DNA of 64,000 nucleotides from Candidatus Amesbacteria bacterium GW2011_GWB1_47_19 (GTDB lineage: Bacteria; Patescibacteriota; Microgenomatia; CAZETR01; Amesbacteraceae): assembly GCA_001002325.1 (NCBI GenBank), contig LCNZ01000007.1:26763-90762 (forward strand), given 5' to 3'. Each line of letters starts with the position of its first letter. The first letter of the stretch is position 1. This document shows positions 29,672 to 47,329 of this stretch, in pieces. A model generated the notes under the pieces. It was given only the letters and a program-made list of their open reading frames with translations. It did no database searches and had not been told where the DNA came from. The translations under genes and the position numbers were made by a program.

Positions 29672-30121
29672 ATGAAGTGTCCGTTTTGTGCTGCCAGCGA
29701 TACATCGGTGCTGGAATCCAGAGTAGCGGATGACGGACAGTCACTGCGTCGTCGGCGCGAATGCGCCAACTGCCAAAAGCGCTTTACCACTTTTGAGCGG
29801 GTGGAGGGGCCGACTATTTTCGTCATTAAAAGAGACGGCAGCCGCCAGCCTTTTGACAGGGACAAAATTGTCCATGGAGTGACCAGGTCTTTTGACAAAC
29901 GACCGGTTTCCATTGACCAGGTTAACCATCTGGCTGACGAAGTGGAACGGGAAGTCAGACGCCGGGAGGTGTCGGAAATGTCCAGTAAAGTTATTGGCAA
30001 AATGGTACTAAAAAGACTAAAAAATATTGACAAAGTTGCCTGGCTGCGGTTTGCCAGTGTGTATCTGGAGTTGTCAGATGTGACGGAATTTGAAAAGTTA
30101 TTGGAAAAAGTCGCTGTCTAA
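29672..30121 (+). CDS. nrdR: Transcriptional repressor NrdR
   Basis: 'MKCPFCAASDTSVLESR...CANCQKRFTTFE' zinc ribbon followed by an ATP-cone. Confidence 0.9.
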   Translation: MKCPFCAASDTSVLESRVADDGQSLRRRRECANCQKRFTTFERVEGPTIFVIKRDGSRQPFDRDKIVHGVTRSFDKRPVSIDQVNHLADEVEREVRRREVSEMSSKVIGKMVLKRLKNIDKVAWLRFASVYLELSDVTEFEKLLEKVAV

Positions 30122-34550: not shown

Positions 34551-36899
34551 ATGTTACCGGTGAATCTGACGGGGTTGTTGGTCCAGTTGGGAATTTTGGC
34601 GGCGGTGCTGGGAGCACTTGTTGTGCTGGGGATTTTCGGCGGATATGTGGGGATTGCTTTGTATCGGCACAAAGACCGGGAGGAAAAAAGCCTGCAAATG
34701 GTGGTGCTGCAAGTAGCTGTTCCCCGGGACAATGAAATCAAGATTGATGCCATGGAGCAGATATTTTCGAGCTTGTATTCGATCAAGAAAGGAAAGATGG
34801 GATGGTTCGGACTGCTGACATTTTTGCAGGTTCAGCCGCATATTAGCTTTGAGATAGTAGCGCGCAGGGAAGACATAAAATTTTATATCTCGGTGCCGGA
34901 TAAAATGCGGGATCTGGTGGAAAAACAAATCCACGGCGGTTATCCGGGGGCGGAGATAAAAATAGTGGAAGAGCCGACCATTTTTACCGATGAAGGACGG
35001 GTGGAATATGCCTGGATGGTGCTGCGTAATTCGGCGCATTATCCGATGAAAATATTTAAAGACCTGGCGACAGATCCGATGGCCTCCTTAACTTCGGCGA
35101 TGGCGAAAATGGGGGAAGGGGAGGGAGCGCATATCCAGATTCTGATATTTCCGGCCGAAAACAAATGGAAAGGCAAAGGCCGAGCATGGATCGGCAAGAC
35201 CAAGAAGAACGAGGCCAATCCGGAGAAAGCGTCGTACAAGGTTGATCCCAAAGTAATGGAGGCAGTGGACAATAAGATCAGCAAGGCCGGATTTATGACC
35301 ACCATCCGACTGGTAGTGACATCTGCGGATGCGGGGTCGGCTAAGGCACACATGGCAAATCTGAGAGCGGCTTTTGAACAATTTTCCGGAGACCTGAACG
35401 GATTTAAAAGTAAAAAAATAAGAATGAAAGGTAATTTTATGACGGACTTTATTTACCGTTATCAACCAATGGTGTGGTGGGGCAACTGGACGGTTTTAAA
35501 CAGTGAAGAACTGGCGACGATATATCATTTTCCCAACAAAACAATTGAAACCCCGCATATCCATTGGTTGAATGCCAAACGGGCACCGGCACCGCAGCAG
35601 ATTGCGTCTGAAGGCCTGTATATCGGTAAAAGCGTATTTCGGGGAATTACCCGGCCGGTATTTATTACCGATGAAGACCGGGAAAGGCATATGTATATAG
35701 TAGGCCGAACAGGGACGGGAAAAACGGAGTTTTTGAAGACCATGATTTTGCAGGATATCCAGGCGGGAAGGGGTGTGGCAGTTATTGATCCGCATGATCT
35801 GGCTGAGGATCTTTTAGGGTATATTCCACCGGAAAGGGCGGAGGACGTGATCTTTTTTGAACCATCGGATGAACAGTGGCCGATGGGGTTGAACCTGCTG
35901 GAGACACGCAACGAACAGGAAAGGCATATGGCAACCAACGCGGTAATAGGGATGATGTACAAACTGTATGATCCGCATAAAACCGGAATCATTGGACCGA
36001 GATTTGAACACGCTATCAGGAACGCAATGCTGACAGTGATGGATGCTATTCCCGGCGGGACATTTATCGAAGTGGTGCAGACACTGCAGCGGCCGGAATT
36101 CGTACAGGAAATGCTGCCGAGGGTGAAGGACCCGTTGGTGAGGAGGTATTGGACCGACCAGATAGCCCAAACGTCGGAATTTCATAAATCCGAAGTGCTG
36201 GATTATATCGTGTCCAAATTCGGCCGGTTCGTAACCAATAAAACTATCAGAAATATAATCGGACAGTCGGTGTCGGCGTTTGATTTCCGGAAAGTGATGG
36301 ATGAAGGGAGGATTCTGATCGTCAACCTGTCCAAAGGAAAACTGGGGGAGGAGAACAGCAACTTTCTGGGACTGGTGCTGGTGCCCCGGCTGCTGGCGGC
36401 AGCGATGAGCCGGGCGGATATGCCGGAGGCTTCCAGGCGGCCGTTTTATCTGTATGTGGATGAGTTCCAGAACTTTGCCACGCCGGATTTTGCCACCATT
36501 TTGTCCGAGGCCAGGAAATATAAACTGAATCTGACGGTGGCCAACCAATTTACTTCACAAATGGAGGATGAGGTAAAAAATGCGGTATTCGGCAACGTGG
36601 GAACTTTGATTTCGTTCCGGGTGGGGGTGGGAGACGCCAATTACCTGCAGCATGAATACAGCCCGACGTTTAACGAGGCGGATCTGTTAAATATCGAGAG
36701 ATACAATGTATTTATTAAAACGGTGGTGCATAACGAACCGGTACCGCCGTTTACTATGGATGTGACCAAGGATATTGATAAGGAAAGGAAGATGCGCAAT
36801 TCTCAACTGGCGGAGGCGATTAAAGAGTTGTCCCGGCTGAAATACGGGCGGGATGTGAGAATTGTAGAGGCGGAGATAGGAACCAGGTCGAAATTGTAA
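34551..36899 (+). CDS. VirD4/TraG/TraD-like type IV coupling ATPase (T4SS DNA-binding domain protein)
   Basis: N-terminal TM helix; Walker A 'GRTGTGKTEF'; 'LYVDEFQNFATPDFATILSEARKYKLNLTVANQ' matches the TraG/TraD C-terminal region. Confidence 0.6.
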   Translation: MLPVNLTGLLVQLGILAAVLGALVVLGIFGGYVGIALYRHKDREEKSLQMVVLQVAVPRDNEIKIDAMEQIFSSLYSIKKGKMGWFGLLTFLQVQPHISFEIVARREDIKFYISVPDKMRDLVEKQIHGGYPGAEIKIVEEPTIFTDEGRVEYAWMVLRNSAHYPMKIFKDLATDPMASLTSAMAKMGEGEGAHIQILIFPAENKWKGKGRAWIGKTKKNEANPEKASYKVDPKVMEAVDNKISKAGFMTTIRLVVTSADAGSAKAHMANLRAAFEQFSGDLNGFKSKKIRMKGNFMTDFIYRYQPMVWWGNWTVLNSEELATIYHFPNKTIETPHIHWLNAKRAPAPQQIASEGLYIGKSVFRGITRPVFITDEDRERHMYIVGRTGTGKTEFLKTMILQDIQAGRGVAVIDPHDLAEDLLGYIPPERAEDVIFFEPSDEQWPMGLNLLETRNEQERHMATNAVIGMMYKLYDPHKTGIIGPRFEHAIRNAMLTVMDAIPGGTFIEVVQTLQRPEFVQEMLPRVKDPLVRRYWTDQIAQTSEFHKSEVLDYIVSKFGRFVTNKTIRNIIGQSVSAFDFRKVMDEGRILIVNLSKGKLGEENSNFLGLVLVPRLLAAAMSRADMPEASRRPFYLYVDEFQNFATPDFATILSEARKYKLNLTVANQFTSQMEDEVKNAVFGNVGTLISFRVGVGDANYLQHEYSPTFNEADLLNIERYNVFIKTVVHNEPVPPFTMDVTKDIDKERKMRNSQLAEAIKELSRLKYGRDVRIVEAEIGTRSKL

Positions 36900-36944
36900 T
36901 GTAGCTGGAGAGGGGGTAAGGATAAGTAGTAAAATGCGGGGAAC

Positions 36945-37016
36945 GGATCCGTAGCTCAACGGTAGAGCGGCTGTCTTATACACAGTATGTTGGAGGTTCG
37001 AATCCTCCCGGATCCA
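36945..37016 (+). tRNA. tRNA with anticodon TAT (reads AUA; tRNA-Ile(UAU)-like)
   Basis: Cloverleaf folded by hand: acceptor GGATCCG/CGGATCC, D-arm GCTC-AACGGTA-GAGC, anticodon stem GCTGT/ACAGT with loop CTTATAC, T-arm GGAGG-TTCGAAT-CCTCC. CCA is not encoded. Confidence 0.7.
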
Positions 37017-37144
37017 CAGATGCCGGGAGGCAACATTTGTTGTGCCCGGACCGCTTCAGGATGTTGTAGGTCAATCTTGGCCACAGAAGTTTACATCGGT
37101 TGTAAAATGGGCGGATGGCAGGCGGCAAGTTAGAACGATTAATA

Positions 37145-37405
37145 ATGAATTTGGGGGAAGAGTGTGTGAAGAGAAGTTTAAAATCCAGAGGGCTGGCCGT
37201 AGTAAAAGATGGAAAATGGACGCTGACCGACGACGGCAAATTGACTTTTTATCGGGAGCTGATAGAAGAAGAGGCGTCAAGAAGGAAAGTAGAAGTGACC
37301 GAAATTCCGGACTGGATAGCAGATATATTGGCCAGAAAAGCCGGATTTCAAAATGAACAAGAGGTGGCGAATCTGGTTGCAAGAAAATTGAGAGGGGAGA
37401 AGTGA
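37145..37405 (+). CDS. Small hypothetical protein
   Basis: 86 aa ORF from ATG 37145 (MNLGEECVKRSLK...); no recognisable motif. Confidence 0.25.
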   Translation: MNLGEECVKRSLKSRGLAVVKDGKWTLTDDGKLTFYRELIEEEASRRKVEVTEIPDWIADILARKAGFQNEQEVANLVARKLRGEK

Positions 37406-37418
37406 CAGATGCACCGGC

Positions 37419-38294
37419 TTACAGTTCTAGGAGGCGGGTGGTGGATTCGGTGACGTCGACGGTAATGTGGTCCAGATATTTCTGAGTGGAAGAGAGGCGG
37501 CGATGGCCGACGTGTTTGTGGACTATTTCCGGCTCCACGCCGTGCTTCAACTGGTGGGCGATAAAAGTGTGACGCAGATCATTGATTTTGGCATCTTTGA
37601 CACCGGCTTTGTGGAAATAGCGGCCAATGGCGGTGCGGATGTTTCTGACTAACAGCGGGCGTCCGGTTTTGGTAACAAACAGGTGGGGGTCGACGACTTT
37701 GGGGCGGATGGCCAGGTAATTGGTAACGGCTGAAATAGCCGGGCGGTTGAGAAAAATGTCCCGGGCGGGATTGTTTTCCAGAGACTGGATGTGGACTTCG
37801 GCCTTTTTGAGATCATCCACCCGGAGACTGGCCAGCTCCGATATGCGCATACCCGTTTGGAGGAGCAGCTCAATAATGGTGGAGATACGGATATCCAGAC
37901 GGGCGGCGTCGCGGAGGTTTCTGACTTCGGCGGGGGAAAGGAAGCGCGGAGGTTTGGTGTCGTACTTGGGGTGGATCAGGGGATGGGCGGGATTTTCGGT
38001 GACAATATCCTGATTCTGGAGGAATTTAAAAAAGGTTTTCAGAGAATTGATCTTGCGGCTGACGCTCTTTGGAGTGTAGTTTTTTGAGGCCAGATCCTGA
38101 ATGTAGCCTTCCAGATGTTCGGTACGCACGGTCGTAGCCTGGGTAATGCGATGGCTGTCCAGGTGTTTTCGGAGCTGCTGCAGGTCGCTGCCGTAAGCGG
38201 TGGTGGTAGCCGAGGATCGTTTTTGAGTTCGGAGGTGGGCCAGGAACTTCTCCAGGGCAGTCGTAAAACTTACCGGCTGGGGTAAATCTGTCAT
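37419..38294 (-). CDS. Tyrosine site-specific recombinase (XerC/XerD-like integrase)
   Basis: C-terminal catalytic 'RHTFIAHQLKHG...HVGHRRLSSTQKYLDH' (R..HxxR..Y) and an N-terminal SAM-like domain. Confidence 0.8.
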   Translation of the reverse strand: MTDLPQPVSFTTALEKFLAHLRTQKRSSATTTAYGSDLQQLRKHLDSHRITQATTVRTEHLEGYIQDLASKNYTPKSVSRKINSLKTFFKFLQNQDIVTENPAHPLIHPKYDTKPPRFLSPAEVRNLRDAARLDIRISTIIELLLQTGMRISELASLRVDDLKKAEVHIQSLENNPARDIFLNRPAISAVTNYLAIRPKVVDPHLFVTKTGRPLLVRNIRTAIGRYFHKAGVKDAKINDLRHTFIAHQLKHGVEPEIVHKHVGHRRLSSTQKYLDHITVDVTESTTRLLEL

Positions 38295-38378
38295 ATCTTA
38301 AGTCCCATAGTATGAGACTACAGGTCTATTTTACGCTAAATTAAGCTATTGTAAAGAGGGCTGTGGTAAATTAAGACT

Positions 38379-38753
38379 ATGCGTAAATCCGGGTGGAAAG
38401 GATGGATCCTGATAATTCTGGGTTCGGTGACAGCCGTGAGAACGGGGATGAATGTTTACAGACTGTGGCAGAGAGGGGGGAGAGTGGGTGAAACCAGGCA
38501 ACAGCTGGAGGCGGCGAAGGCGGAGAACCGGAGATTGCAGACGAAGCTGGAGGAGGTGCAGACTGATGAATTCGTCGAAAAGGAAGCCCGTGAGAAACTG
38601 GGGTACGGGAGGGAAGGTGAGACGGTTCTTATTTTGCCAAAACAGGATAATGCTCAGGGGCCAGTCATGCCTGCCGGCAGGCAGGTGCTCAGTACTCAGG
38701 AACCGGAAATTCCCAATTGGAGGAAGTGGTGGAAGCTGTATGTGAGGTTATAG
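38379..38753 (+). CDS. Septum formation initiator FtsB/DivIC-like
   Basis: N-terminal TM helix plus coiled coil (QQLEAAKAENRRLQTKLEEVQ) and 'EKEAREKLGY'. Confidence 0.65.
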   Translation: MRKSGWKGWILIILGSVTAVRTGMNVYRLWQRGGRVGETRQQLEAAKAENRRLQTKLEEVQTDEFVEKEAREKLGYGREGETVLILPKQDNAQGPVMPAGRQVLSTQEPEIPNWRKWWKLYVRL

Positions 38754-38775
38754 GGACTAGGTTCTAGGTATTAGG
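38750..38775. repeat. Intergenic TAGGTTCTAGG-type motif (copy 1)
   Basis: tagggactaggttctaggtattagg directly after the ftsB stop. Confidence 0.4.
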
Positions 38776-38791
38776 CATGGGACGCTGAGCG

Positions 38792-38867
38792 TGGTGGCTA
38801 CGGCTGGATTCGGACCAGCGATCCCTTGTTTATGATACAAGTGCTTTAACCACTAAGCTACGTAGCC
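38792..38867 (-). tRNA. tRNA-Met (anticodon CAT), elongator-type, CCA encoded
   Basis: Reverse complement gives GGCTACG-TA-GCTT-AGTGGTTA-AAGC...anticodon loop ATCATAA...T-arm GCTGG-TCCGAAT-CCAGC-CGTAGCC-A-CCA. The 1:72 position is a G-C pair. Confidence 0.8.
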
Positions 38868-39541
38868 AAGGTTTTTGCGAGACCATGTATCTCGCCGAGG
38901 ATTTTATAATAGATTCTGGCTGGCCGTTTAACTCTAATTGATAATGTGCCGTAGTGATCGTTAAAATTTTCAAAATCTTTTTTAAGTGGGTATTTTTTGA
39001 AGCTGGTTTTGGTAAAACTTTCGAGAGGAATTCCTGTTTGACTTGACCAATATTTTTTTACTATACCCTCTCGAATTTTATGAGTTTCGTTGATACCCAC
39101 ATAGCAAGATAATTCTTGCTTAGGTATTCGATAGCTCGATTTGAGCCAATTTATGTATGATTTTATCATTAGGGGATCAGAGTTGCATAGTTCTATTCTT
39201 CTTGCCTTTTTCGTTCCCTCGGACCAGTAGAGGCAAATCCCTGCGATTTTCCTTTCTTTGATTGACAGCCGACGAAACTCTTTTTCTCCATCATGGTTAT
39301 GTTTATTAATGAGTTCCAGCCTTCTCCTTTTCAAGATGAGGGAGTTCTTAAGACGGGCTTTATTTGATGCGGATATTTGGTCTGATTTGAGTTTATCTAC
39401 TTGCTCGGGTGAAAGAATAATATGTCTTGTCCATAGACTGGCAGTGCTTTTGGCCACATTAAGTGCTTTAGCAATATTTCTCACACTTGTTCCAGAAGTT
39501 CTTAATTTAATAGCCTCTATTCGTAAGGAACTCTTTGACAT
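38858..39541 (-). CDS. Free-standing HTH + LAGLIDADG-like homing-endonuclease-like protein (paralog A)
   Basis: N-terminal HTH (RTSGTSVRNIAKALNVAKSTASLW). C-terminal 'IAGICLYWSEG...CNSDPLMIKSYINWL...VGINETH...GTLSIRV'. The NSDP...I...L block resembles the '[17 protein letters not shown]' block of the FtsH intein endonuclease. Its 3' end overlaps the tRNA-Met by ~10 nt. Confidence 0.55.
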   Translation of the reverse strand: MSKSSLRIEAIKLRTSGTSVRNIAKALNVAKSTASLWTRHIILSPEQVDKLKSDQISASNKARLKNSLILKRRRLELINKHNHDGEKEFRRLSIKERKIAGICLYWSEGTKKARRIELCNSDPLMIKSYINWLKSSYRIPKQELSCYVGINETHKIREGIVKKYWSSQTGIPLESFTKTSFKKYPLKKDFENFNDHYGTLSIRVKRPARIYYKILGEIHGLAKTLAT

Positions 39542-39680
39542 CTATAGATATCATATTATTCGGTTTTTGTTTGGTTTGTCAAGAGTACTTTATTATTTAT
39601 TATTGAGCTACGCAGCCTCGAGAGCATTTTACCAAAAATCCGCTTTTGACTGGATGAGATCAGGACGGTTCTTCTAATAA

Positions 39681-40355
39681 CTAGTTATATTTTACTGCCA
39701 TAATTAGTCCTTTTATTTTCCTTAAAAGATCAGTACTTTTGAGAATCCTAATTCTCAATGTCCCAAAATAATTTTCCGGATGGTCATATGTTTTTTTCCA
39801 GGAGGTCTTTTGAAAAAAAGGTTTATAAAATTGGGTATTGGGGATACTAGTAATTTCCGACCAATACTTTTCGATTTCTTCAACCCGATGACTATGAGAT
39901 TCATTTATTCCGACCCTTAATCTGATTAAGTCTTTGGAAACAGATAGGGAATTGATTAACCATTCAATAATAAAGTTGATCATTTCCGGATCAGAATTGG
40001 CAAATCCGGCCATTTTGTCCTTCTTGAATCCCTCCGCCCAATATAAAGCAGTCCCTGCCAGAAGTTTTTCTCTGGCGCTCAGGTTAATTAGCATGTTTTT
40101 CGCTTCTGATCTGATTAGTTTTTCTTTGGTAAGTCTATACGCTTGTTGTTTTAGAGCATAAGAGAGTCTTCTTCCATAGTACGGATCCCTAGAGTTTTTC
40201 TCTAACTGAGATATTTGTTCAGGAGTGAGCTTAATATCTCTGCACCATAAACTGGCTGTACTGGTAGAGACAGCAAGATCCCGTGCAATTTCTTTGATAC
40301 TTTTCCCTTCGGATCTGAGATGCCTGGCTTCAGTCTTTTGTCTGGTTTTTGCCAT
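39681..40355 (-). CDS. Free-standing HTH + LAGLIDADG-like homing-endonuclease-like protein (paralog B)
   Basis: N-terminal HTH (RSEGKSIKEIARDLAVSTSTASLW); 'LLAGTALYWAEGFKK...ANSDPEMINFIIEWL...VGINESH...GTLRIRI'. Clear paralog of 38858..39541. Confidence 0.55.
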   Translation of the reverse strand: MAKTRQKTEARHLRSEGKSIKEIARDLAVSTSTASLWCRDIKLTPEQISQLEKNSRDPYYGRRLSYALKQQAYRLTKEKLIRSEAKNMLINLSAREKLLAGTALYWAEGFKKDKMAGFANSDPEMINFIIEWLINSLSVSKDLIRLRVGINESHSHRVEEIEKYWSEITSIPNTQFYKPFFQKTSWKKTYDHPENYFGTLRIRILKSTDLLRKIKGLIMAVKYN

Positions 40356-40396
40356 GGTAGAACTAACATACCTATTATCAGATATCGTTTTATTAT

Positions 40397-40425
40397 TGTC
40401 AAACCAGCTTCTGGATGATATGATT
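40397..40425 (+). promoter_or_regulatory. Candidate promoter (TTGTCA-17-TATGAT) for the intron-containing tRNA
   Basis: Hexamers with 17-nt spacing, ~25 nt upstream of the tRNA 5' end. Confidence 0.3.
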
Positions 40426-40448
40426 TGTGAGTTCTTTTATAAGGCGCG

Positions 40449-40711
40449 TGCGGGGTAGTGTAGAGCTGCACGGAAGGCTAGTAGTATGGGCCCCGCCGGT
40501 AGTAATACCGGTGCGCAAACTTGGCTATATCGGTGGACATCCTGAGCTTGTCGAAGGACAATACCGAGGCAACCTCGAAAGAGAGAGTCCGTAGAGACTA
40601 CACGCCAAGCACCCCGACGTTATGTCGGGGTGATGATATAGTCCGACTCCCCGAGTAATCGGGGTCAGAATGCATAATCTTCCAGACCGGGCGCGACTCC
40701 CGGCCCCGCAA
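40449..40711 (+). tRNA. tRNA-Met(CAU) (initiator-like acceptor stem) interrupted by a group I intron in the anticodon loop; exons 40449..40479 and 40673..40711
   Basis: Exon 1 reads TGCGGGG-TA-GTGT-AGAGCT-GCAC-G-GAAGG-CT and ends at U33. Exon 2 reads CATAA-TCTTC-CAGA-CCGGG-CGCGACT-CCCGG-CCCCGCA-A. The spliced anticodon loop is CUCAUAA. The acceptor GCGGGG/CCCCGC-A-A matches E. coli tRNA-fMet. Followed by a T-run. Confidence 0.65.
40480..40672 (+). ncRNA. Group I self-splicing intron (193 nt, no ORF) in the tRNA-Met anticodon loop
   Basis: P1: exon GGCU pairs with IGS GGCC (40489-92) with U·G at the splice site. P10: IGS UAUG pairs with the 3' exon start CAUA. P7 strands AGACUA (40595-600) and UAGUC (40639-43) flank the P8 hairpin CCCCGAC-GUUAU-GUCGGGG. 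P9 is CCCCGA-GUAA-UCGGGG with a GNRA loop. The terminal G is at 40672. The core resembles the Tetrahymena intron (GAUAUAGUCGGACC) and the Azoarcus tRNA-Ile intron (GUAGAGACUAGACGG). Confidence 0.65.
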
Positions 40712-40783
40712 CACATTTTTTGATCTTCTTGTATTTCGTGGTATAGTCAATTTCCGCTTTCCGGCTGCGATATAATTCCGGTA

Positions 40784-41083
40784 ATGACCACTGAAATCAG
40801 GTTAAGAAAACTGACAGACGGGCTTCCACAGGGAACCCCGATAAATATCAGCCCCGATTTGCATCGGTTGCATAGGGAGTTACATCAGGCTGCAATCTCA
40901 GAGGAGAAAACGCCATACTCTCAGGAGGCTTTGGTTATTTACTTTGGTTTGCTTACCCAGGCTGAGAAGCATTTTTTTGCGGAGTGGAGCGGACAGGTGT
41001 TAAGTATAGTGCTGGATATATATTGTGAACACAATCCGCCGGGGGCGATAAAGCATCCGATGAAAGATCTCAGGTTGGGGTAG
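40784..41083 (+). CDS. Hypothetical protein
   Basis: 99 aa ORF; no recognisable motif. Confidence 0.3.
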   Translation: MTTEIRLRKLTDGLPQGTPINISPDLHRLHRELHQAAISEEKTPYSQEALVIYFGLLTQAEKHFFAEWSGQVLSIVLDIYCEHNPPGAIKHPMKDLRLG

Positions 41084-41116
41084 AATCGAAGACTAAACCT
41101 ATAGTATAATGTAAGG

Positions 41117-41968
41117 ATGAATCATCATGAGGGGAGGAGGGCTTTCTTGGCATTAGTAGTAACTTCACCTTTCTGGTGTACCATGTTTTACCTGGGTATT
41201 CGTGGTGTGTTGACTATGGAACCGAAGGAGGACGTGCCGGGAAGTGAGCGATCAGGGATGCAAGAGCCGCCAAATGTGGGCGAAGAGGCCATACCTGTAC
41301 CTGATTTGAAGATGAATATTCCCGACGGGTATAGGGGTGAGAGTATCGGGCCCGGAGTTGAGATGTATAAAAACGGACAGGAGTGGGTGCAAGTCGTGGA
41401 TTTGGAGAAGGCTAAGTTGGTGGTGGTTGATTCTGAAAAAGGATGGAAAAAGCCTGATTGGTTTTGGAGTAAATTTAAGAAAAAGTATAAAGGCAGAGCG
41501 ACCAGTTTGTTCGGAGCTGTCCATTATGCCGAAGGCAGGTTACAATTCGGGCTTCGGGACGGAGAAGAGATTTGGAATAGAGAAATTGACAGTGGGCTAG
41601 CCGGACAGAGAATGCTGTCTATTGAAGGAAACTATGCGAAAGTGGGGGGATATGACAAGGATAAACTGGACGGGGATGAAGGTGTGGTTATCGGAGGTGA
41701 AGGGATAGAGAAATCGAACAGGGAATGGAATAAGCGGCGGGCCAGGACGATTTTGACTGCGGATGAGACGGGACGGAAGTTATTGGTGATGGTTTTTGCC
41801 GGTGCGACCAGAGAAGACGTAATCAAGGTACTGAAAAAATGGGGAATTGCCGAGGCGAACGCCATAAATATCCAGGGAGGAACATTTACGGAATTGAGAG
41901 TAAGGGGGAACGAGCTGCTAGGGTATGGTGAGGACGTGACTTTAATGCTGGGTATAGTAGAAAGATAG
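41117..41968 (+). CDS. Membrane-anchored phosphodiester-glycosidase-like (DUF2233) protein
   Basis: N-terminal TM helix. C-terminal 'LLVMVFAGATREDV...AEANAINIQGGTFTEL' resembles the phosphodiester glycosidase 'AxNLDGGGS' region. Confidence 0.4.
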   Translation: MNHHEGRRAFLALVVTSPFWCTMFYLGIRGVLTMEPKEDVPGSERSGMQEPPNVGEEAIPVPDLKMNIPDGYRGESIGPGVEMYKNGQEWVQVVDLEKAKLVVVDSEKGWKKPDWFWSKFKKKYKGRATSLFGAVHYAEGRLQFGLRDGEEIWNREIDSGLAGQRMLSIEGNYAKVGGYDKDKLDGDEGVVIGGEGIEKSNREWNKRRARTILTADETGRKLLVMVFAGATREDVIKVLKKWGIAEANAINIQGGTFTELRVRGNELLGYGEDVTLMLGIVER

Positions 41969-41971
41969 ATT

Positions 41972-42637
41972 ATGATAGAAGATTTATTGAGAACAGAATC
42001 ACGACTGGTAGGGGCTAAATATCTGAAGAGTTTGGAAAAAAGGAGAGTCGATAGGACTATGGCGGGATTATTTACCATACCGGCAATTGCGGCTTTGGGT
42101 CTTGCTATTCCGGTATGGTTGGAAGATGGACAAAATCCAATGGTGGATGCAGGGGGAATGCGTGAGGGGCGATGGGCGCCTTTGTGGAAAGTGAGGACAA
42201 TGATACCCGGAGCGCAAGAATTGGAGTCTAAAATTACAGGAGGCCGGCCGTTACTTGAAGTAAAGAGTGACTGTGACCCAAGGGTAACCAAGACAGGAAG
42301 AGTAATAAGGAAAACTACCCTGGATGAATTACCCCAAGTATTTGCAGTGTGGGCAGGGAAATGTCATTTTGTAGGGCCACGAGTTCCGGCGATTACCGAA
42401 TGGGAATGGATAATAAAGCATGGCAATACCGGAGTTTATCGGGAATATTTAGAGAAGGTCAGAGACGGATTGGGATTCGGGGCGGTCGGTATGTACATGG
42501 CAATAAACCGGGGGATGCAGGATTTTGAACAGAGGCTGGAATTGGATGTTCTCTATTGGGAAAAGGCCAGTGCAGCTGCAGATTGGAGAATACTGGGGGC
42601 AGCAATGTTGGGAATAATTAAGTCCAGAGGAAAGTAG
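41972..42637 (+). CDS. Sugar transferase (polyprenyl-phosphate glycosyl-1-phosphate transferase, WbaP/WcaJ C-terminal-domain type)
   Basis: 'LWKVRTM', 'DPRVTKTGRVIRKTTLDELPQVFAVWAGKCHFVGPR' Bac_transf motif, and an N-terminal TM helix. Confidence 0.75.
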   Translation: MIEDLLRTESRLVGAKYLKSLEKRRVDRTMAGLFTIPAIAALGLAIPVWLEDGQNPMVDAGGMREGRWAPLWKVRTMIPGAQELESKITGGRPLLEVKSDCDPRVTKTGRVIRKTTLDELPQVFAVWAGKCHFVGPRVPAITEWEWIIKHGNTGVYREYLEKVRDGLGFGAVGMYMAINRGMQDFEQRLELDVLYWEKASAAADWRILGAAMLGIIKSRGK

Positions 42638-42696
42638 AGATGTTTGGTTTTAAAGTGAGTCTAAGAAAGATAAAGGAATAGAGATATAATCGGGGT

Positions 42697-43680
42697 ATGA
42701 AGAAAAGGATATTGGCGGGGATGAGGGCGGTGGCGCGACCGCACCTAGGGAATTACCTAGGAGCGGGGAAGGGTATGGTGCAGCTACAAGAGCGGGCAGA
42801 ATATGAAACTTTTTATATGGTGGCAGACCTGCATACTCTGACAACACCCTATGACAAAGACTATTTGGCCGGATTGACCAAAGATGTAGTGATGGATTAT
42901 CTGGCGATGGGGCTGGATCCGGAGAAATCGGTATTGTTTGTACAATCACATGTTCCGCAGCACACGGAACTGGCTTATTTGTTGTCCACAGTGACTACGG
43001 TAGCCAAGATGTCGCACCTGCCGACTTATAAGGAAAAAATCAAAGAATATCCGCAGCATTCCACTATGGCTTTATTGAATTATCCGGTACTGATGGCGGC
43101 GGATATTTTGATTTATAAAGCCGAGAAGGTACCGGTGGGAGTAGACCAGGAACCGCATCTGGAAATAGCCCGGGAAATTGCCCGGAGAATGAACGCCGAT
43201 TACGGGACGGATTTTCCGGAACCAAAAATGTTCGGAACCAAAGGGGCTTACGTACCATCTCTTTTAGGTGAGGGGAAAATGAGCAAATCGGTGGGAGGAA
43301 GTTATATTGCTCTGACGGATGATTTGCAGATGATAAGCGCAAAACTGGCAAAAGCACCTACTGATGCAGGAGGCCCGGGGGAGGTACCAATAACCGGACC
43401 AGTAGCAAATCTGTTTAAATTCTTGGAGTTGTTTTTGCCCAATAGACTGGAGTATTACGGTGAAGCCTACCGGCAGGGGAAATTGAGATATGCGGAATTA
43501 AAGGAGGAATTGGCGCGGGCGATTTATGGGGAAATCAGGCCGATACAGGAGCGCAGAGAACAGTTCAAGTCCAAGTCTGAGATGGTCGATGAAATAATCC
43601 ATGAAGGGGCGAGAAAGGCCAAAGAGGCGGCTGGGAAGACATTGCAGGAAGTGAAGGAGAAAATGGGATTATTGGTGTAA
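42697..43680 (+). CDS. trpS: Tryptophanyl-tRNA synthetase
   Basis: HIGH-type motif 'RPHLGNYLG', 'KMSKS' (KMSKSVGG), ~327 aa. Confidence 0.8.
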   Translation: MKKRILAGMRAVARPHLGNYLGAGKGMVQLQERAEYETFYMVADLHTLTTPYDKDYLAGLTKDVVMDYLAMGLDPEKSVLFVQSHVPQHTELAYLLSTVTTVAKMSHLPTYKEKIKEYPQHSTMALLNYPVLMAADILIYKAEKVPVGVDQEPHLEIAREIARRMNADYGTDFPEPKMFGTKGAYVPSLLGEGKMSKSVGGSYIALTDDLQMISAKLAKAPTDAGGPGEVPITGPVANLFKFLELFLPNRLEYYGEAYRQGKLRYAELKEELARAIYGEIRPIQERREQFKSKSEMVDEIIHEGARKAKEAAGKTLQEVKEKMGLLV

Positions 43681-43702
43681 GGAAAATTGTTATAATTTCC
43701 AA

Positions 43703-44026
43703 ATGATTACGATTGATGATTTTGCAAAAATTGAAATCAGTGTGGGGTTGGTGGTGGAGGCGATGAATCAGGAAGGCAGTGAGAAATTAATTAAGTTAAC
43801 AGTGGATGTAGGTGAGGAAGTACCGCGAATTATCTTTACTGCGGTGAGGGGGTATGGGTATACGCCGGAAGATTTTGCCGGGAAAAAATTTCTGTTTGTA
43901 ACAAACCTGGAACCGAAAAAAATTATGGATAAGGAGAGCCAGGGGATGATATTGGCGGTAGATTCCGAGGGGAAACCATTGTTTGTCAGCGCAGACAGAC
44001 TGCCGGTTGGAAGTAAAGTAAGGTAG
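43703..44026 (+). CDS. tRNA-binding protein (Trbp111/CsaA/EMAP-like OB fold)
   Basis: 'FAKIEISVGLVVEAMNQEGSEKLIKLTVDVGEE' and 'KKFLFVTNLEPKKIM' match the MetRS C-terminal tRNA-binding domain. Confidence 0.7.
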   Translation: MITIDDFAKIEISVGLVVEAMNQEGSEKLIKLTVDVGEEVPRIIFTAVRGYGYTPEDFAGKKFLFVTNLEPKKIMDKESQGMILAVDSEGKPLFVSADRLPVGSKVR

Positions 44027-44058
44027 TTAGGGATTAGGTTTTAGGTTCTAGTGATTAG
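44024..44058. repeat. Intergenic TAGGTTCTAGG-type motif (copy 2)
   Basis: tagttagggattaggttttaggttctagtgattag directly after the stop of the tRNA-binding protein gene. Confidence 0.4.
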
Positions 44059-44182
44059 AAATTGGGAGACTTAGCGATTTGCCAGCTCGGCTTTCATATG
44101 ATTTGGTGCTTAAGGTTTTTATAAATCATGAGAAATCCGGAAAGTGGCGGGGAGGGTTAATTTAGAGTAAAATCTGGCGGTT

Positions 44183-47100
44183 ATGGCTACACTTCGCCAA
44201 GGTCCTACGGGTGGTACTAAGAAAAAGCTACCAGTGAGAGGTTTTATGCTGCAGCTGAACCTGGATTTCCAGAAACTGTTGTGGTTGCTGGTGGTGATAT
44301 TGATGGGATTGTCACTTTTGGAGCTGTGGAATAGCGGTAAGCAGACCAGCCAGGAAGTTCAACTGTCGCAAGCGCTGTCTGATATCAAAGACGGCAAGGT
44401 GGAGAAAGTGGAGATTTTCTCGGAACGGCTGTCGCTGAAATATAAAGACAGCAAAGACCAGTTTTTTTCCCGTAAGGAACCGGGGGAAAGTTTTACTGAG
44501 ATTCTGGAGAGGGCAAAGATCCCCGCAGAAGCTGTGCAGTATGAGATAAAAGATGAAACTTTCGGCCAGTTGATAGCGGCGGTATTGCCCAGCGTAATCG
44601 GGACGGGGGTGGTGCTGTTGGTTCTGTTGTATATGTTCCGGCAAGCCAGGGGTGCCCAGGATTCGGTATTTTCTTTCGGCCAGAGCCGGGCAAAATTGTT
44701 TGACAAGGGCAAACAAAGCGTGAAATTTTCGGACGTAGCCGGGGTGGACGAAGCCAAGAAAGAACTGGAAGAAGTGGTGGACTTTTTGAAAAGTCCGGGT
44801 AAATACCGGGCAGTAGGGGCCAGGACTCCCAAAGGGGCGCTTTTGGTGGGACCGTCGGGGGTGGGAAAGTGCGTGACCGGTGATACCATAATATGGACCA
44901 ATAAGGGATTGATGGAGATAAAAGAGGTCCCGCGTTACTATTATGTTGATACAAAATCGCATCGGGTTTACGGGGCAGGACTGGCTGGTTTTGATACGGA
45001 CAAGGTGATATCAAAGGATGAATTCGCTTCCCATTGGTACAATTTGGGTGAACAAGCAACCGTTAAAGTACAGTTGGCGCAGGGGTTTGATATAGAAGGG
45101 ACTCCCGAGCATCCGGTAGTAGTAATGGCCGGAGATGGCAAGTTACGATTTAGAAAATTACAGGATGTGAAACTGGGGGATTATGCTGCCCTGCAGTTTG
45201 GCAGAGGTATGTTTGGGAACTTACAAATGGTGGATGCAGACACGGCTTATCTGATGGGACTATTAACGGGAGATGGAAATATGAGTCATGCTAGTAGGGT
45301 GGGGTTGACTAATATTGATCCGGAAATAATCTCGTTTTTTGAAAATTATATAAAGAAGAGATATCCGGAGAATGCGATTACAGTGAGACAGCAGTCCTAT
45401 CTGGTGTCCAGTTGGCAATTTAAACGATCTCTTTATGAGATGGGGATGTCTTATCTGTTATCTTTTGATAAGAGTGTGCCGGTGACGATATTACAGGCAT
45501 CGAGAGGAATTCAGATAATGTTTTTGAGGGGTCTGTTTGATACTGACGCCAGTGTGGAGAAGAGCAGGGCGACGATAGAGTATACAACCGTTAGCGAAAA
45601 AATGGCTAAACAGATACAAATGATGCTATTGAATATGGGGGTGGTAGCCTATTTGAATGTCAAAGGAAAAACTGAAAATGGTTATTATCGGCCTGTTTAT
45701 CGTTTGAACATAACCGGGTCCCCGTTCGTGGAATTCAGCAGGCAAATTGGGTTCGGTTTGGTTAGAAAACAACGACTTTTGGAAAGGCATGTGGAGAAAA
45801 TGGGACGAGTGAATACTAATATTGATGTAATTCCCGGAGTCGGAGGGATGATAGAAGAAGCGTGGAGGTTGATTTCCGCTCGTAAGATGAGCAATGAAAA
45901 ACTATCAAAGACGGTTGATAAAGTGAGGAATAGGAATAGGGTTTCCAGACAAACACTAGAGGATTTTGTGGAGTATTCCAGCCAGACGGGAATGGAGATG
46001 CCTGACCTGGAGTATTTGGGAAATTTGTTGGAAGCTAAGCTGTTTTTTTCAAAAGTAGTAGAAAAAACGGAAAATAAGGGTGTGGTTTATGATTTTACCG
46101 TGCCTCAAACACATAGTTTTTTGGGAAACGGATTTGTAAATCATAATACACTGTTGGCCAGGGCGGTGGCGGGAGAAGCGGGAGTACCGTTTTTTTCAAT
46201 GGCAGGATCGGAGTTTATGGAAATGCTGGTGGGGGTGGGAAGTGCCCGGGTGAGGGATTTGTTTAACACAGCTAAAAAAGCAGCCCCGTCAATTATTTTT
46301 ATTGATGAAATTGACGCTATCGGAAGGCAGCGGGGACACGGGTTGATGGGTGGGCACGATGAAAGGGAACAAACATTGAATCAGATACTGGTGGAGATGG
46401 ACGGATTTACGCCTAATGATAATGTGGTGGTGCTGGCGGCAACAAACAGAGGGGATCTGCTGGATCCTGCACTTTTACGGCCCGGCAGGTTTGACCGGCG
46501 GGTGGTGGTGGATATGCCTGACATTGAAGGACGGAAAGCAATTCTGGCAATTTATGCCCGAAATAAACCAATAGCCGAAGGAGTGGATTGGAGTGCGGTG
46601 GCGAGAAGGACAGTCGGGTTTTCCGGAGCGGATCTGGAAAATATGCTGAATGAAGCGGCGATTGGTGTAGCCCGGGAAAACCACAAGACCATGACGATGC
46701 AGGATATCGAGGAAGCAGCTACGAAAGTAAAGCTGGGTCCGCAAAAGAAGCGGATGCAATCCGAGGAGGACCGGAAAATGACGGCTTACCATGAGGTGGG
46801 ACATGCGATTGTGACGTGGGCCCAACCGGGGATGGATCCGGTGCACAGGATATCGATTGTGTCGCGGGGAATGACATTGGGACATACGCTGGTGCCACCG
46901 TCGACGGACAGGGTACATGAGACTAAAAACCGGCTGTTGTCACAGGTGGCCATGATGCTGGGGGGAAGAGCTGCGGAAGAGATGGTTTTTTCCGAGGTCA
47001 CTACCGGTGCGGCTAATGATATTGATAAAGCCACCAGAGTAGCCCGGGATATGGTGATGGAGTACGGCATGAGCAGTCTGGGACCCGTCAATTACGGACC

Positions 47101-47329
47101 GCAGCAGGATATGGTGGAATGGGGACGGACTTATATTGAGCAGCCGCCTATTTCGCAGGAAATGCAGGCAAAGATTGATACGGAAGTAAAAAGAATCATG
47201 GACGAAGGATATCTGAAGGCGGTTGCCATATTAAAAAAATACCGGAAAAGGCTGGATGCCGTATCGCTGAGACTTCTGGAAATTGAAACTATGGACGGGG
47301 ATGAGTTTGAGAAGATCATGAAGGCGTAA
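44183..47329 (+). CDS. ftsH: ATP-dependent zinc metalloprotease FtsH, interrupted by an in-frame intein in the Walker A P-loop
   Basis: N-terminal TM helices, AAA motifs (GPSGVGK|...|[15 protein letters not shown], '[13 protein letters not shown]'), and the Zn-protease 'HEVGHAIV'. At 1048 aa it is too long because a 426-aa insert sits between GK and T of GxxGxGKT. Confidence 0.9.
44870..46147 (+). mobile_element. Intein (426 aa) with LAGLIDADG homing-endonuclease domain, inserted in the FtsH P-loop
   Basis: Begins with Cys1 (CVTGDTIIW) and contains a TxxH block B (GTPEHPV). The two LAGLIDADG motifs are '[12 protein letters not shown]' and '[12 protein letters not shown]'. The intein ends with ...VYDF...GFVNHN followed by the +1 Thr of the extein (TLLARAV). 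Confidence 0.85.

Follow-up and report, generated by a model that had tools for sequence, protein, structure and literature searches.

A tRNA(CAU) gene, probably that of the initiator, split by a group I intron in a Candidatus Amesbacteria contig, and its unusual elbow

One of the four classical types of group I intron in bacterial transfer RNA (tRNA) genes is fMet.2Ug, the notation standing for an intron placed after the second nucleotide of the anticodon loop, with U at position -1 and a terminal G; the same source gives 0.49 split tRNA genes per genome for metagenomic genomes of unnamed phyla (Williams 2020, bioRxiv 10.1101/2020.01.27.920355). For the Patescibacteria, 95 complete genomes were surveyed by Nakagawa et al. 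(2026, mSystems, PMC13011429), who tabulated Met(CAU) introns at 33/34, with their sequences, in two Microgenomatia (GCA_001029755.1 and GCA_013426185.1; their Table 1 and Table S3). None of their Patescibacteria tRNA introns was classed as IC by subgroup models, and the identity of the tRNAs that host the Met 33/34 introns is undiscussed there. We examined a 64-kb stretch of the genome of Candidatus Amesbacteria bacterium GW2011_GWB1_47_19 (contig LCNZ01000007.1, positions 26,763 to 90,762; hereafter the window, from which the single-genome evidence below is drawn), in which a group I intron of 193 nt (40480-40672) separates U33 from C34 of a tRNA(CAU) gene at 40449-40711 (+). We are highly confident that the locus is, overall, as an earlier reading made from the letters alone (the sequence-only reading) had described it, i.e., a real tRNA gene, probably for the initiator, split by a group I intron with the P1-P10 fold of a ribozyme. 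That reading had also implied novelty, and here it failed: Met(CAU) 33/34 introns were already tabulated for the two Microgenomatia, 33/34 is the classical fMet site, and the hosts that it listed (cyanobacteria, plastids, Azoarcus, Agrobacterium) no longer cover the known range. The window intron is an ordinary further example of a family already published in the same class and at the classical site, and the unexpected part of the locus is the tRNA elbow, not the intron.

The split gene and its intron

A group I intron after U33 is supported by a covariance model, an intron-aware tRNA finder, intron-less alleles and covariation. The Rfam model Intron_gpI (RF00028) matched 40447-40665 (+) with 71.0 bits (gathering threshold, 50; E 5e-16) over the full model (1-253), and no second match was found in the 64-kb window, a permissive scan included. 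ARAGORN in its intron-aware mode (-i) returned a 193-nt intron between 'aggct' and 'cataa', with the junction as predicted, and called the joined exons tRNA-Met(cat); default ARAGORN and the Rfam tRNA model gave no call for the split gene, and a completeness check relying on default tRNA finders would thus report the Met/initiator tRNA missing. The intron alone folded with z = -4.2 relative to shuffled sequences. Uninterrupted genes at four loci of the scan described below (loci carry L numbers: L103; L116, from Ca. Amesbacteria RIFOXYB1_FULL_44_23; L122; L130) are 100% identical to the predicted spliced exons, their 5' halves being identical to the 5' exon, and because the genes in L103 and L116 equal the predicted spliced product, the junction is fixed without any intron model. 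The gene in L116 scored 44.2 bits on the Rfam tRNA model (RF00005; gathering threshold, 29). Alternative splice junctions were considered and ruled out, the loop CUCAUAA being found as predicted in about 100 uninterrupted orthologues. The exon and intron coordinates given in the sequence-only reading proved exact (Table 1); the complete cloverleaf that it had rebuilt from the joined exons, and the anticodon loop CUCAUAA that it had read there, are borne out by the ARAGORN call and by the uninterrupted orthologues, and two of the checks that it had proposed, an Rfam scan for group I introns and intron-aware tRNA finding (done with ARAGORN), both returned the intron.

As had also been stated from the letters, the intron has no open reading frame (ORF): the sole ORF of at least 60 aa over it is 63 aa long, lies on the opposite strand and is too short for a homing endonuclease. 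CCA is not encoded in the gene. The promoter-like site upstream agrees with 10 of 12 consensus positions and has the TG extension, and on this consensus match it is a putative promoter.

Table 1. Features of the split tRNA(CAU) gene, its intron and neighbouring genes, in window coordinates. Percentages and counts of pairs refer to the alignment of homologous introns described in the text.
Feature	Coordinates	Strand	Description
Promoter-like site	40396-40424	+	TTGTCA, 17-nt spacer, (TG)TATGAT; 25 nt upstream of tRNA 5' end
5' exon	40449-40479	+	31 nt, tRNA positions 1-33, full sequence TGCGGGGTAGTGTAGAGCTGCACGGAAGGCT, ends ...GAAGGCU; acceptor strand UGCGGGG, short D arm GUG-UAGAGCUG-CAC, anticodon-stem strand GAAGG, C32 U33
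Group I intron	40480-40672	+	193 nt; begins AGUAGUAUGGGCC, ends ...CAGAAUG; from Rfam RF00028, ARAGORN -i, fold z-score and 24-sequence covariation
3' exon	40673-40711	+	39 nt, tRNA positions 34-73, full sequence CATAATCTTCCAGACCGGGCGCGACTCCCGGCCCCGCAA; reads CAUAAUCUUCC...CCCCGCA-A; anticodon CAU, A37 A38, stem UCUUC, variable loop CAGA, T arm CCGGG-CGCGACU-CCCGG, acceptor CCCCGCA, discriminator A
P1	40476-40492	+	exon GGCU 40476-79 with internal guide GGCC 40489-92; U40479.G40489 is the splice-site wobble; U.G in 23/23 aligned homologues, 97.9% of cells paired
P10	40485-88 with 40673-76	+	guide UAUG with 3'-exon CAUA; aligns 3' exon; inner pairs (G-C, U-A) in 24/24 introns, outer pairs vary
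P2	40494-40513	+	8-bp hairpin, GUAA (GNRA) tetraloop 40502-05; 8/8 pairs changed on both sides
P3	40520-40525 with 40604-40609	+	CUUGGC with GCCAAG; 3' strand crosses P7, giving P3-P7 pseudoknot; 95.8% of cells paired, compensatory changes in 3 pairs
P4	40530-35 with 40562-67	+	encloses P5; 100% paired, core invariant
P5	40540-43 with 40555-58	+	simple hairpin; compensatory changes in 3 pairs
P6	40568-70 with 40588-90	+	93% paired among homologues
P6a	40573-76 with 40581-85	+	GAAA loop; read from window sequence alone
P7	40594-40600 with 40639-40644	+	G-A(bulge)-GACUA with UAGUCC; 6/6 pairs invariant in 24/24 introns
P8	40610-18 with 40624-32	+	9-bp hairpin, 5-nt loop; 9/9 pairs changed on both sides; 68% of cells paired, MAFFT alignment imperfect there
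J8/7	40633-40638	+	AUGAUA, then P7 3' strand UAGUCC 40639-44
P9	40649-54 with 40659-64	+	6-bp hairpin, GUAA tetraloop; compensatory changes in 5/6 pairs, 94-100% of cells paired
Terminal guanosine (omega G)	40672	+	abuts 3' splice site; invariant in 24/24 introns
tRNA-Ile(UAU)	36945-37017	+	
Second CAU tRNA, tRNA-Met(CAU)	38792-38867	-	1.6 kb off; canonical, elongator-type acceptor GGCUACG
FtsH gene	44183-47329	+	1048 aa; carries intein with LAGLIDADG homing-endonuclease domain

For the covariation test, 24 homologous introns were aligned with MAFFT and scored against the P1-P10 model. Standard pairs filled 88.9% of the cells, compared with 33-48% when the 3' partners were slid by 1-3 columns; 29 pairs were changed on both sides, with compensatory changes in P2, P3, P5, P8 and P9; and the covariation score was 0.389, against 0.151 +/- 0.009 for shuffled alignments, none of the 500 shuffles scoring as high. 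The splice-site U.G, P7, the P4 core and the terminal G never varied among the aligned introns, and the stretch running from J8/7 into P7, GAUAUAGUCC, is nearly invariant among homologues and agrees with the Rfam consensus GAUAUAGUC. The window copy has one mismatch in P6 (C40570 x U40588), and its J7/3 is 3 nt long (CAC). None of the P2.1, P5abc or P7.1/7.2 extensions is present in the window intron, whose architecture is of the compact type typical of tRNA introns; by its outline (compact, P2 present, L2 and L9 both GUAA) it looks IC3-like. The elements that had been picked out from the letters (the U.G pair of P1, P10, P7, P8, P9 with its GNRA loop and the terminal G) all lie in the sequence at the exact coordinates of Table 1.

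By analogy with the group I tRNA introns that have been tested, splicing would be expected to follow the usual chemistry and to be self-sufficient. The gene would be transcribed as a precursor of about 263 nt, in which the intron would fold into P1-P10, the P4-P6 and P3-P9 domains being joined via the P3-P7 pseudoknot and P2 and P9 each being capped by a GNRA tetraloop. P7 is presumed, on the same analogy, to be the guanosine-binding helix; an external guanosine bound there would attack the phosphate 3' of U33, held in the U.G wobble of P1, and P10 would next position the 3' exon. G40672 would then move into the guanosine site, and U33, through its free 3'-OH, would be ligated to C34, giving a 70-nt tRNA with the anticodon loop CUCAUAA, to which CCA would be added later.

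Comparison with described introns, and distribution

The closest described introns are those at Met 33/34 in the Microgenomatia. They lie in the orthologous tRNA (exons TGCGGGGTAGTGTA..GCTGCACG..AGGCT before the intron and CATAATCT.. ..CCGCAA after it) and share with the window intron the insertion site, the U-1 and terminal G, and a compact, ORF-less architecture of 190-216 nt. The Table S3 sequence for GCA_001029755.1 is that of CP011214.1 (L030 in our scan); its intron can be aligned throughout with that of the window, with a core identity of only about 66%, and the other published Met 33/34 intron scored 109 bits against a profile of the 24-intron alignment. What differs is the lineage, the published pair being Woesebacteria and the window Amesbacteria-type, and the host tRNA, with A18/C54/G55 in the window and G18/U54/U55 in the published hosts. 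The cyanobacterial fMet.2Ug introns agree with that of the window in the CAU anticodon, the insertion after U33, the rule of U-1 and terminal G, and the fMet-type acceptor stem of the host, whereas similarity in sequence appears confined to the catalytic core, the fMet 33/34 sequences compared here being those of Bacteroidota; some cyanobacterial fMet copies have PD-(D/E)XK endonuclease genes, whereas none of the 32 introns found here exceeds 266 nt. Two copies of Bacteroidota fMet 33/34 introns labelled IC3 gave 26 and 37 bits against the family profile.

Beyond the fMet site, the IC3-type introns (Azoarcus tRNA-Ile(CAU), Anabaena/Nostoc tRNA-Leu(UAA), and Bacteroidota/Bacillota tRNA-Arg(UCU) at 34/35) resemble the window intron in a P1-P10 fold of about 200 nt without P5abc or P7.1/7.2, in GNRA loops on P2 and P9, and in the core motifs UAUAUCGG..., CAAUACCGAGG, GUAGAGACUACACG and GAUAUAGUCC; they differ in the host tRNA and in the insertion at 34/35 or 36/37. 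The IC3-labelled Bacteroidota Arg(UCU) 34/35 intron, with 62 bits, was the best match outside the family. The Asn/Asp 35/36 introns of Patescibacteria share phylum and compact, ORF-poor architecture with the window intron and differ in site and tRNAs; an Asp 35/36 intron from Woesebacteria scored 57 bits against the family profile. Standard tools frequently overlooked or miscalled these Asn/Asp introns, whereas intron-aware ARAGORN and Rfam Intron_gpI both found the window intron. As an intron, the present one carries little weight, extending a documented family by a single species; the wider scan contributes 31 further intron-bearing loci, L030 among them.

Distribution was assessed by running the 5'-exon pattern TGCGGGGTAGTGTANNGCTGCAC against the GTDB representatives, one genome per species, which gave at least 119 loci; Patescibacteria/Microgenomates (Shapiro-, Woese-, Levy- and Amesbacteria) account for nearly all of the matches listed. 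Among these loci the gene was uninterrupted in 94 (L048 included) and contained an intron of 184-266 nt in 23, always between CT and CATAA with G as the last intron nucleotide; two more end within the gene and were assigned to neither class. Scanning metagenomes for the exon variant seen in the window added 17 loci, nine with an intron (192-249 nt), seven without and one ending within the gene. The survey comprises, among the matches listed, 32 intron-bearing loci (the already published L030 included) out of 132 that are non-redundant (24%, or about a quarter of the sampled species with this tRNA), with the site always at 33/34; the longest of the 32 homologous introns is 266 nt, and none of them has an endonuclease gene. 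Intron-bearing and intron-less genes share identical exons in some loci, and the tRNA variant of the window is also present in Ca. Amesbacteria genomes, class Microgenomatia. The nearest distinct intron among the matches listed is that of L127, with 85% core identity. In general the closest introns come from the same tRNA lineage, and from these sequence relationships the intron seems to have been passed on for the most part vertically and to have been lost repeatedly.

Two uninterrupted loci, L048 (Ca. Shapirobacteria, JBDRHA010000011.1) and L109, have C33 in place of U33 (loops CCCAUGA and CCCAUAA, respectively); C33 would abolish the U required at a group I 5' splice site and is unusual in any tRNA. 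A number of records in the scan carry unexpected titles: 'uncultured Gammaproteobacteria' (binchicken assemblies) on L002, L005, L007-L009 and about 45 more loci with this Microgenomatia-specific tRNA, and lone titles of Actinomycetota (L049) and Omnitrophota (L118, a 4.8-kb contig). These Gammaproteobacteria, Actinomycetota and Omnitrophota records are likely mislabelled or mis-binned.

Elbow and identity of the tRNA

The D loop of the window tRNA, UAGAGCUG, has A18 G19 (GAG at 40462-40464, in place of CGG), and its T loop, CGCGACU (40692-40698, in place of UUCRAYU), has C54 G55 C56. The combination at 18:55 was scored over 132 loci and was G:U in 98, G:C in 7 and A:G in 27, with A:U and G:G in none; the loci are related, and these counts are not those of independent events. 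The A:G pair occurs in the loop contexts GAG/CGCGACU, GAG/UGCGACU, GAG/CGCGCCU, AAG/UGCGAUU and CAG/UGCGAUU, and the loci that have it, besides the window, are L003, L011, L022, L035, L042, L043, L050, L061, L103, L116, L118 and L120-L135. In the Amesbacteria-type loop U54 is changed to C. From these alignments it appears that the G18:U55 elbow contact has undergone a coordinated, lineage-specific replacement by A18:G55. If true, the usual U54/U55 modification targets would be lost, and the elbow would represent a natural isosteric replacement of a highly conserved tRNA tertiary contact; a literature search on A18/G55 found nothing. It is quite possible, though we would stop short of calling it probable, that a non-canonical initiator is used throughout the Microgenomatia, with the A18:G55 elbow in at least two of its sub-lineages (Amesbacteria-type GAG...CGCGACU and Levybacteria-type AAG...UGCGAUU); the features proposed for it are U1-A72, a lower anticodon stem of A-U/G-C/G.U, U11:A24 and a very short D loop. 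Such an elbow, together with the odd initiator features, may be of interest for tRNA structure and for translation initiation in reduced genomes.

The neighbouring tRNA-Met(CAU) gene has its own departure in this region, its T loop being UCCGAAU with C at 55, which suggests that the constraint on U55 (the pseudouridine-55 site) is relaxed.

The split tRNA(CAU) is probably the initiator. Its acceptor stem, UGCGGGG/CCCCGCA with A73, is invariant among 65 distinct mature sequences and departs from that of E. coli tRNA-fMet at position 1 only. The formylation determinants identified in E. coli work are G2:C71, C3:G70, A72 and A73, and all are present in the window tRNA. The initiator-like acceptor claimed in the sequence-only reading therefore stands for positions 2-7/66-71, A72 and A73, and does not stand for position 1, where a U1-A72 pair is found and no C x A mismatch. 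Pairs A29-U41, G30-C40 and G31.U39 hardly vary (64-65 of the 65 sequences agree), while covariation is seen in the T stem and in the upper part of the anticodon stem. These patterns mark a tRNA under selection, and a fixed acceptor end together with a fixed lower anticodon stem is the pattern expected of identity elements. The near-fixed state of 29:41, 30:40 and 31:39 suggests a constraint of another form than three G:C pairs. Elimination also points to the initiator, since the other CAU tRNA of the window is elongator-like, a tRNA-Ile(UAU) is present, and relatives have two CAU tRNAs. ARAGORN made 71 calls of tRNA-Ile(UAU) in related loci, where the trio with both CAU tRNAs recurs. In a complete relative, GCA_013426185.1, the ARAGORN calls are Ile 2 and Met 1, with the intron gene miscalled Leu (Nakagawa et al. 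2026, PMC13011429), and from these counts that genome has only two CAU tRNAs. We conclude that the gene is probably functional and present in a single copy in its host, a candidate phyla radiation bacterium (Microgenomatia, Amesbacteria-like), and that the tRNA(CAU) encoded is most probably the initiator. Our literature search for an initiator-tRNA study in Patescibacteria found nothing relevant. As an aside, the presence of tRNA-Ile(UAU) and of two CAU tRNAs in relatives suggests that tRNA-Ile(UAU) decodes AUA and that the organism has no lysidine system (tRNA-Ile2/TilS).

A number of observations pull the other way, and the alternatives that they favor must be weighed with them. Position 1:72 is a weak Watson-Crick pair, U1-A72, in 65/65 sequences, with no C1 x A72 mismatch; the anticodon stem has A29-U41, G30-C40 and G31.U39 in the place of three consecutive G:C pairs; position 11:24 is U:A, not A11:U24 (D stem GUG/CAC); and intron-less homologues are labelled 'Met', not 'fMet', in the published pipeline (Nakagawa et al. 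2026, PMC13011429). The intron and its splicing could be as described and the tRNA be an elongator tRNA-Met or a lysidine-modified tRNA-Ile2, which U11:A24 and the missing G:C pairs would fit, as would the annotation of the intron-less homologues as 'Met(CAT)' in tables where 'fMet' or 'Ile2' labels are used for other phyla. We consider this unlikely, if by some way the most serious of the alternatives: the elongator-type acceptor is on the neighbouring CAU tRNA, the recurrence of tRNA-Ile(UAU) and the two CAU tRNAs of complete Microgenomatia leave Ile2 apparently absent, and the invariance of G2:C71, C3:G70, A72 and A73 in the 65 sequences is the pattern of initiator identity elements. The genome examined is the 64 kb of the window, and a second intact copy elsewhere is possible. 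The elbow itself also counts against a functional gene, as the window tRNA lacks the canonical G18 G19 and U54 U55 C56 and its D and T loops are non-canonical. It could be argued that this is a decaying pseudogene with a damaged elbow (A18, C54, G55) and a dead intron, the D loop in this lineage being without GG and the T loop without UUC, and the mature sequence having only 44 bits on the Rfam tRNA model compared with 70-75 bits for two canonical tRNAs of the window. Such decay is very improbable when A18 and G55 occur together in 27 loci and several sequence contexts and never as A18:U55 or G18:G55, when the T stem and anticodon stem covary and the intron core is intact and covarying, when strain variants with flanks 99.5-99.98% identical have the identical intron, and when complete relatives have no spare copy.

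The expectation that a functional intron splices itself out must likewise be set against the fact that the splicing assays of Nakagawa et al. (2026, PMC13011429), in which self-splicing was seen, were on Asn/Asp 35/36 introns only. A true group I intron might still need a protein chaperone or cofactor in the cell, or might form a regulated step limiting tRNA supply; retained introns as RNA-level regulators in Patescibacteria are a speculation of Nakagawa et al. (2026, PMC13011429), and the C x U mismatch in P6 of the window copy could point the same way. We regard this as improbable, given that compact tRNA introns built on the same plan (cyanobacterial tRNA-Leu; Patescibacteria Asn/Asp) are able to splice themselves in vitro free of protein, and that no candidate cofactor gene adjoins the locus. 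That the locus encodes a transfer-messenger RNA (tmRNA), or another structured RNA merely resembling tRNA halves, is scarcely credible when about 100 uninterrupted orthologous tRNA genes share exactly these exon halves. The tmRNA possibility had been raised, and found wanting, in the sequence-only reading, and it gained no support here: at E<=10 over 40250-40900, Rfam gave Intron_gpI and three meaningless weak matches, none of them to tmRNA, and ARAGORN reported no tmRNA.

Assembly support and neighbouring genes

The identical intron is present in seven independent assemblies, and the locus is not an assembly artefact. Sequences with 100% identity to the window over 8-12.7 kb are found in GCA_001773795.1 (MEXT01000015.1), in JGI 3300025030 and in the ENA Rifle aquifer assemblies; in two strain variants, with flanks 99.5-99.98% identical, the intron is unchanged. 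A 224-aa protein encoded beside the tRNA occurs on 24 public contigs, several of which give the matches of 100% identity. A phage origin was considered and rejected, as no DNA match was found in a phage collection, viral contigs gave no match to the exon pattern, and the genes around the tRNA (DivIC, a class I tRNA synthetase of the Trp/Tyr family, FtsH and a XerC/D-like integrase) are cellular.

The neighbourhood from 34551 to 47329 has about 65-74% DNA identity across Microgenomatia (L011, L052, L095, L098, L099, L103), with a conserved order of genes: TraG/VirD4-like ATPase, XerC/D-like integrase, DivIC, two CAU tRNAs, sugar transferase, class I (Trp/Tyr-family) tRNA synthetase and FtsH. 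This conserved order places the tRNA in a stable chromosomal context and not in a mobile island. ARAGORN also called an 84-nt tRNA-Asp(GUC) at 29843-29926 (-), which lies within long ORFs, had no Rfam tRNA match at E<=0.5 and is probably a false positive. Within the FtsH gene, Pfam places Intein_splicing at residues 279-655 and LAGLIDADG_3 at 444-523, within the AAA region; the intein and the tRNA intron, both self-splicing elements, are thus about 3.5 kb apart.

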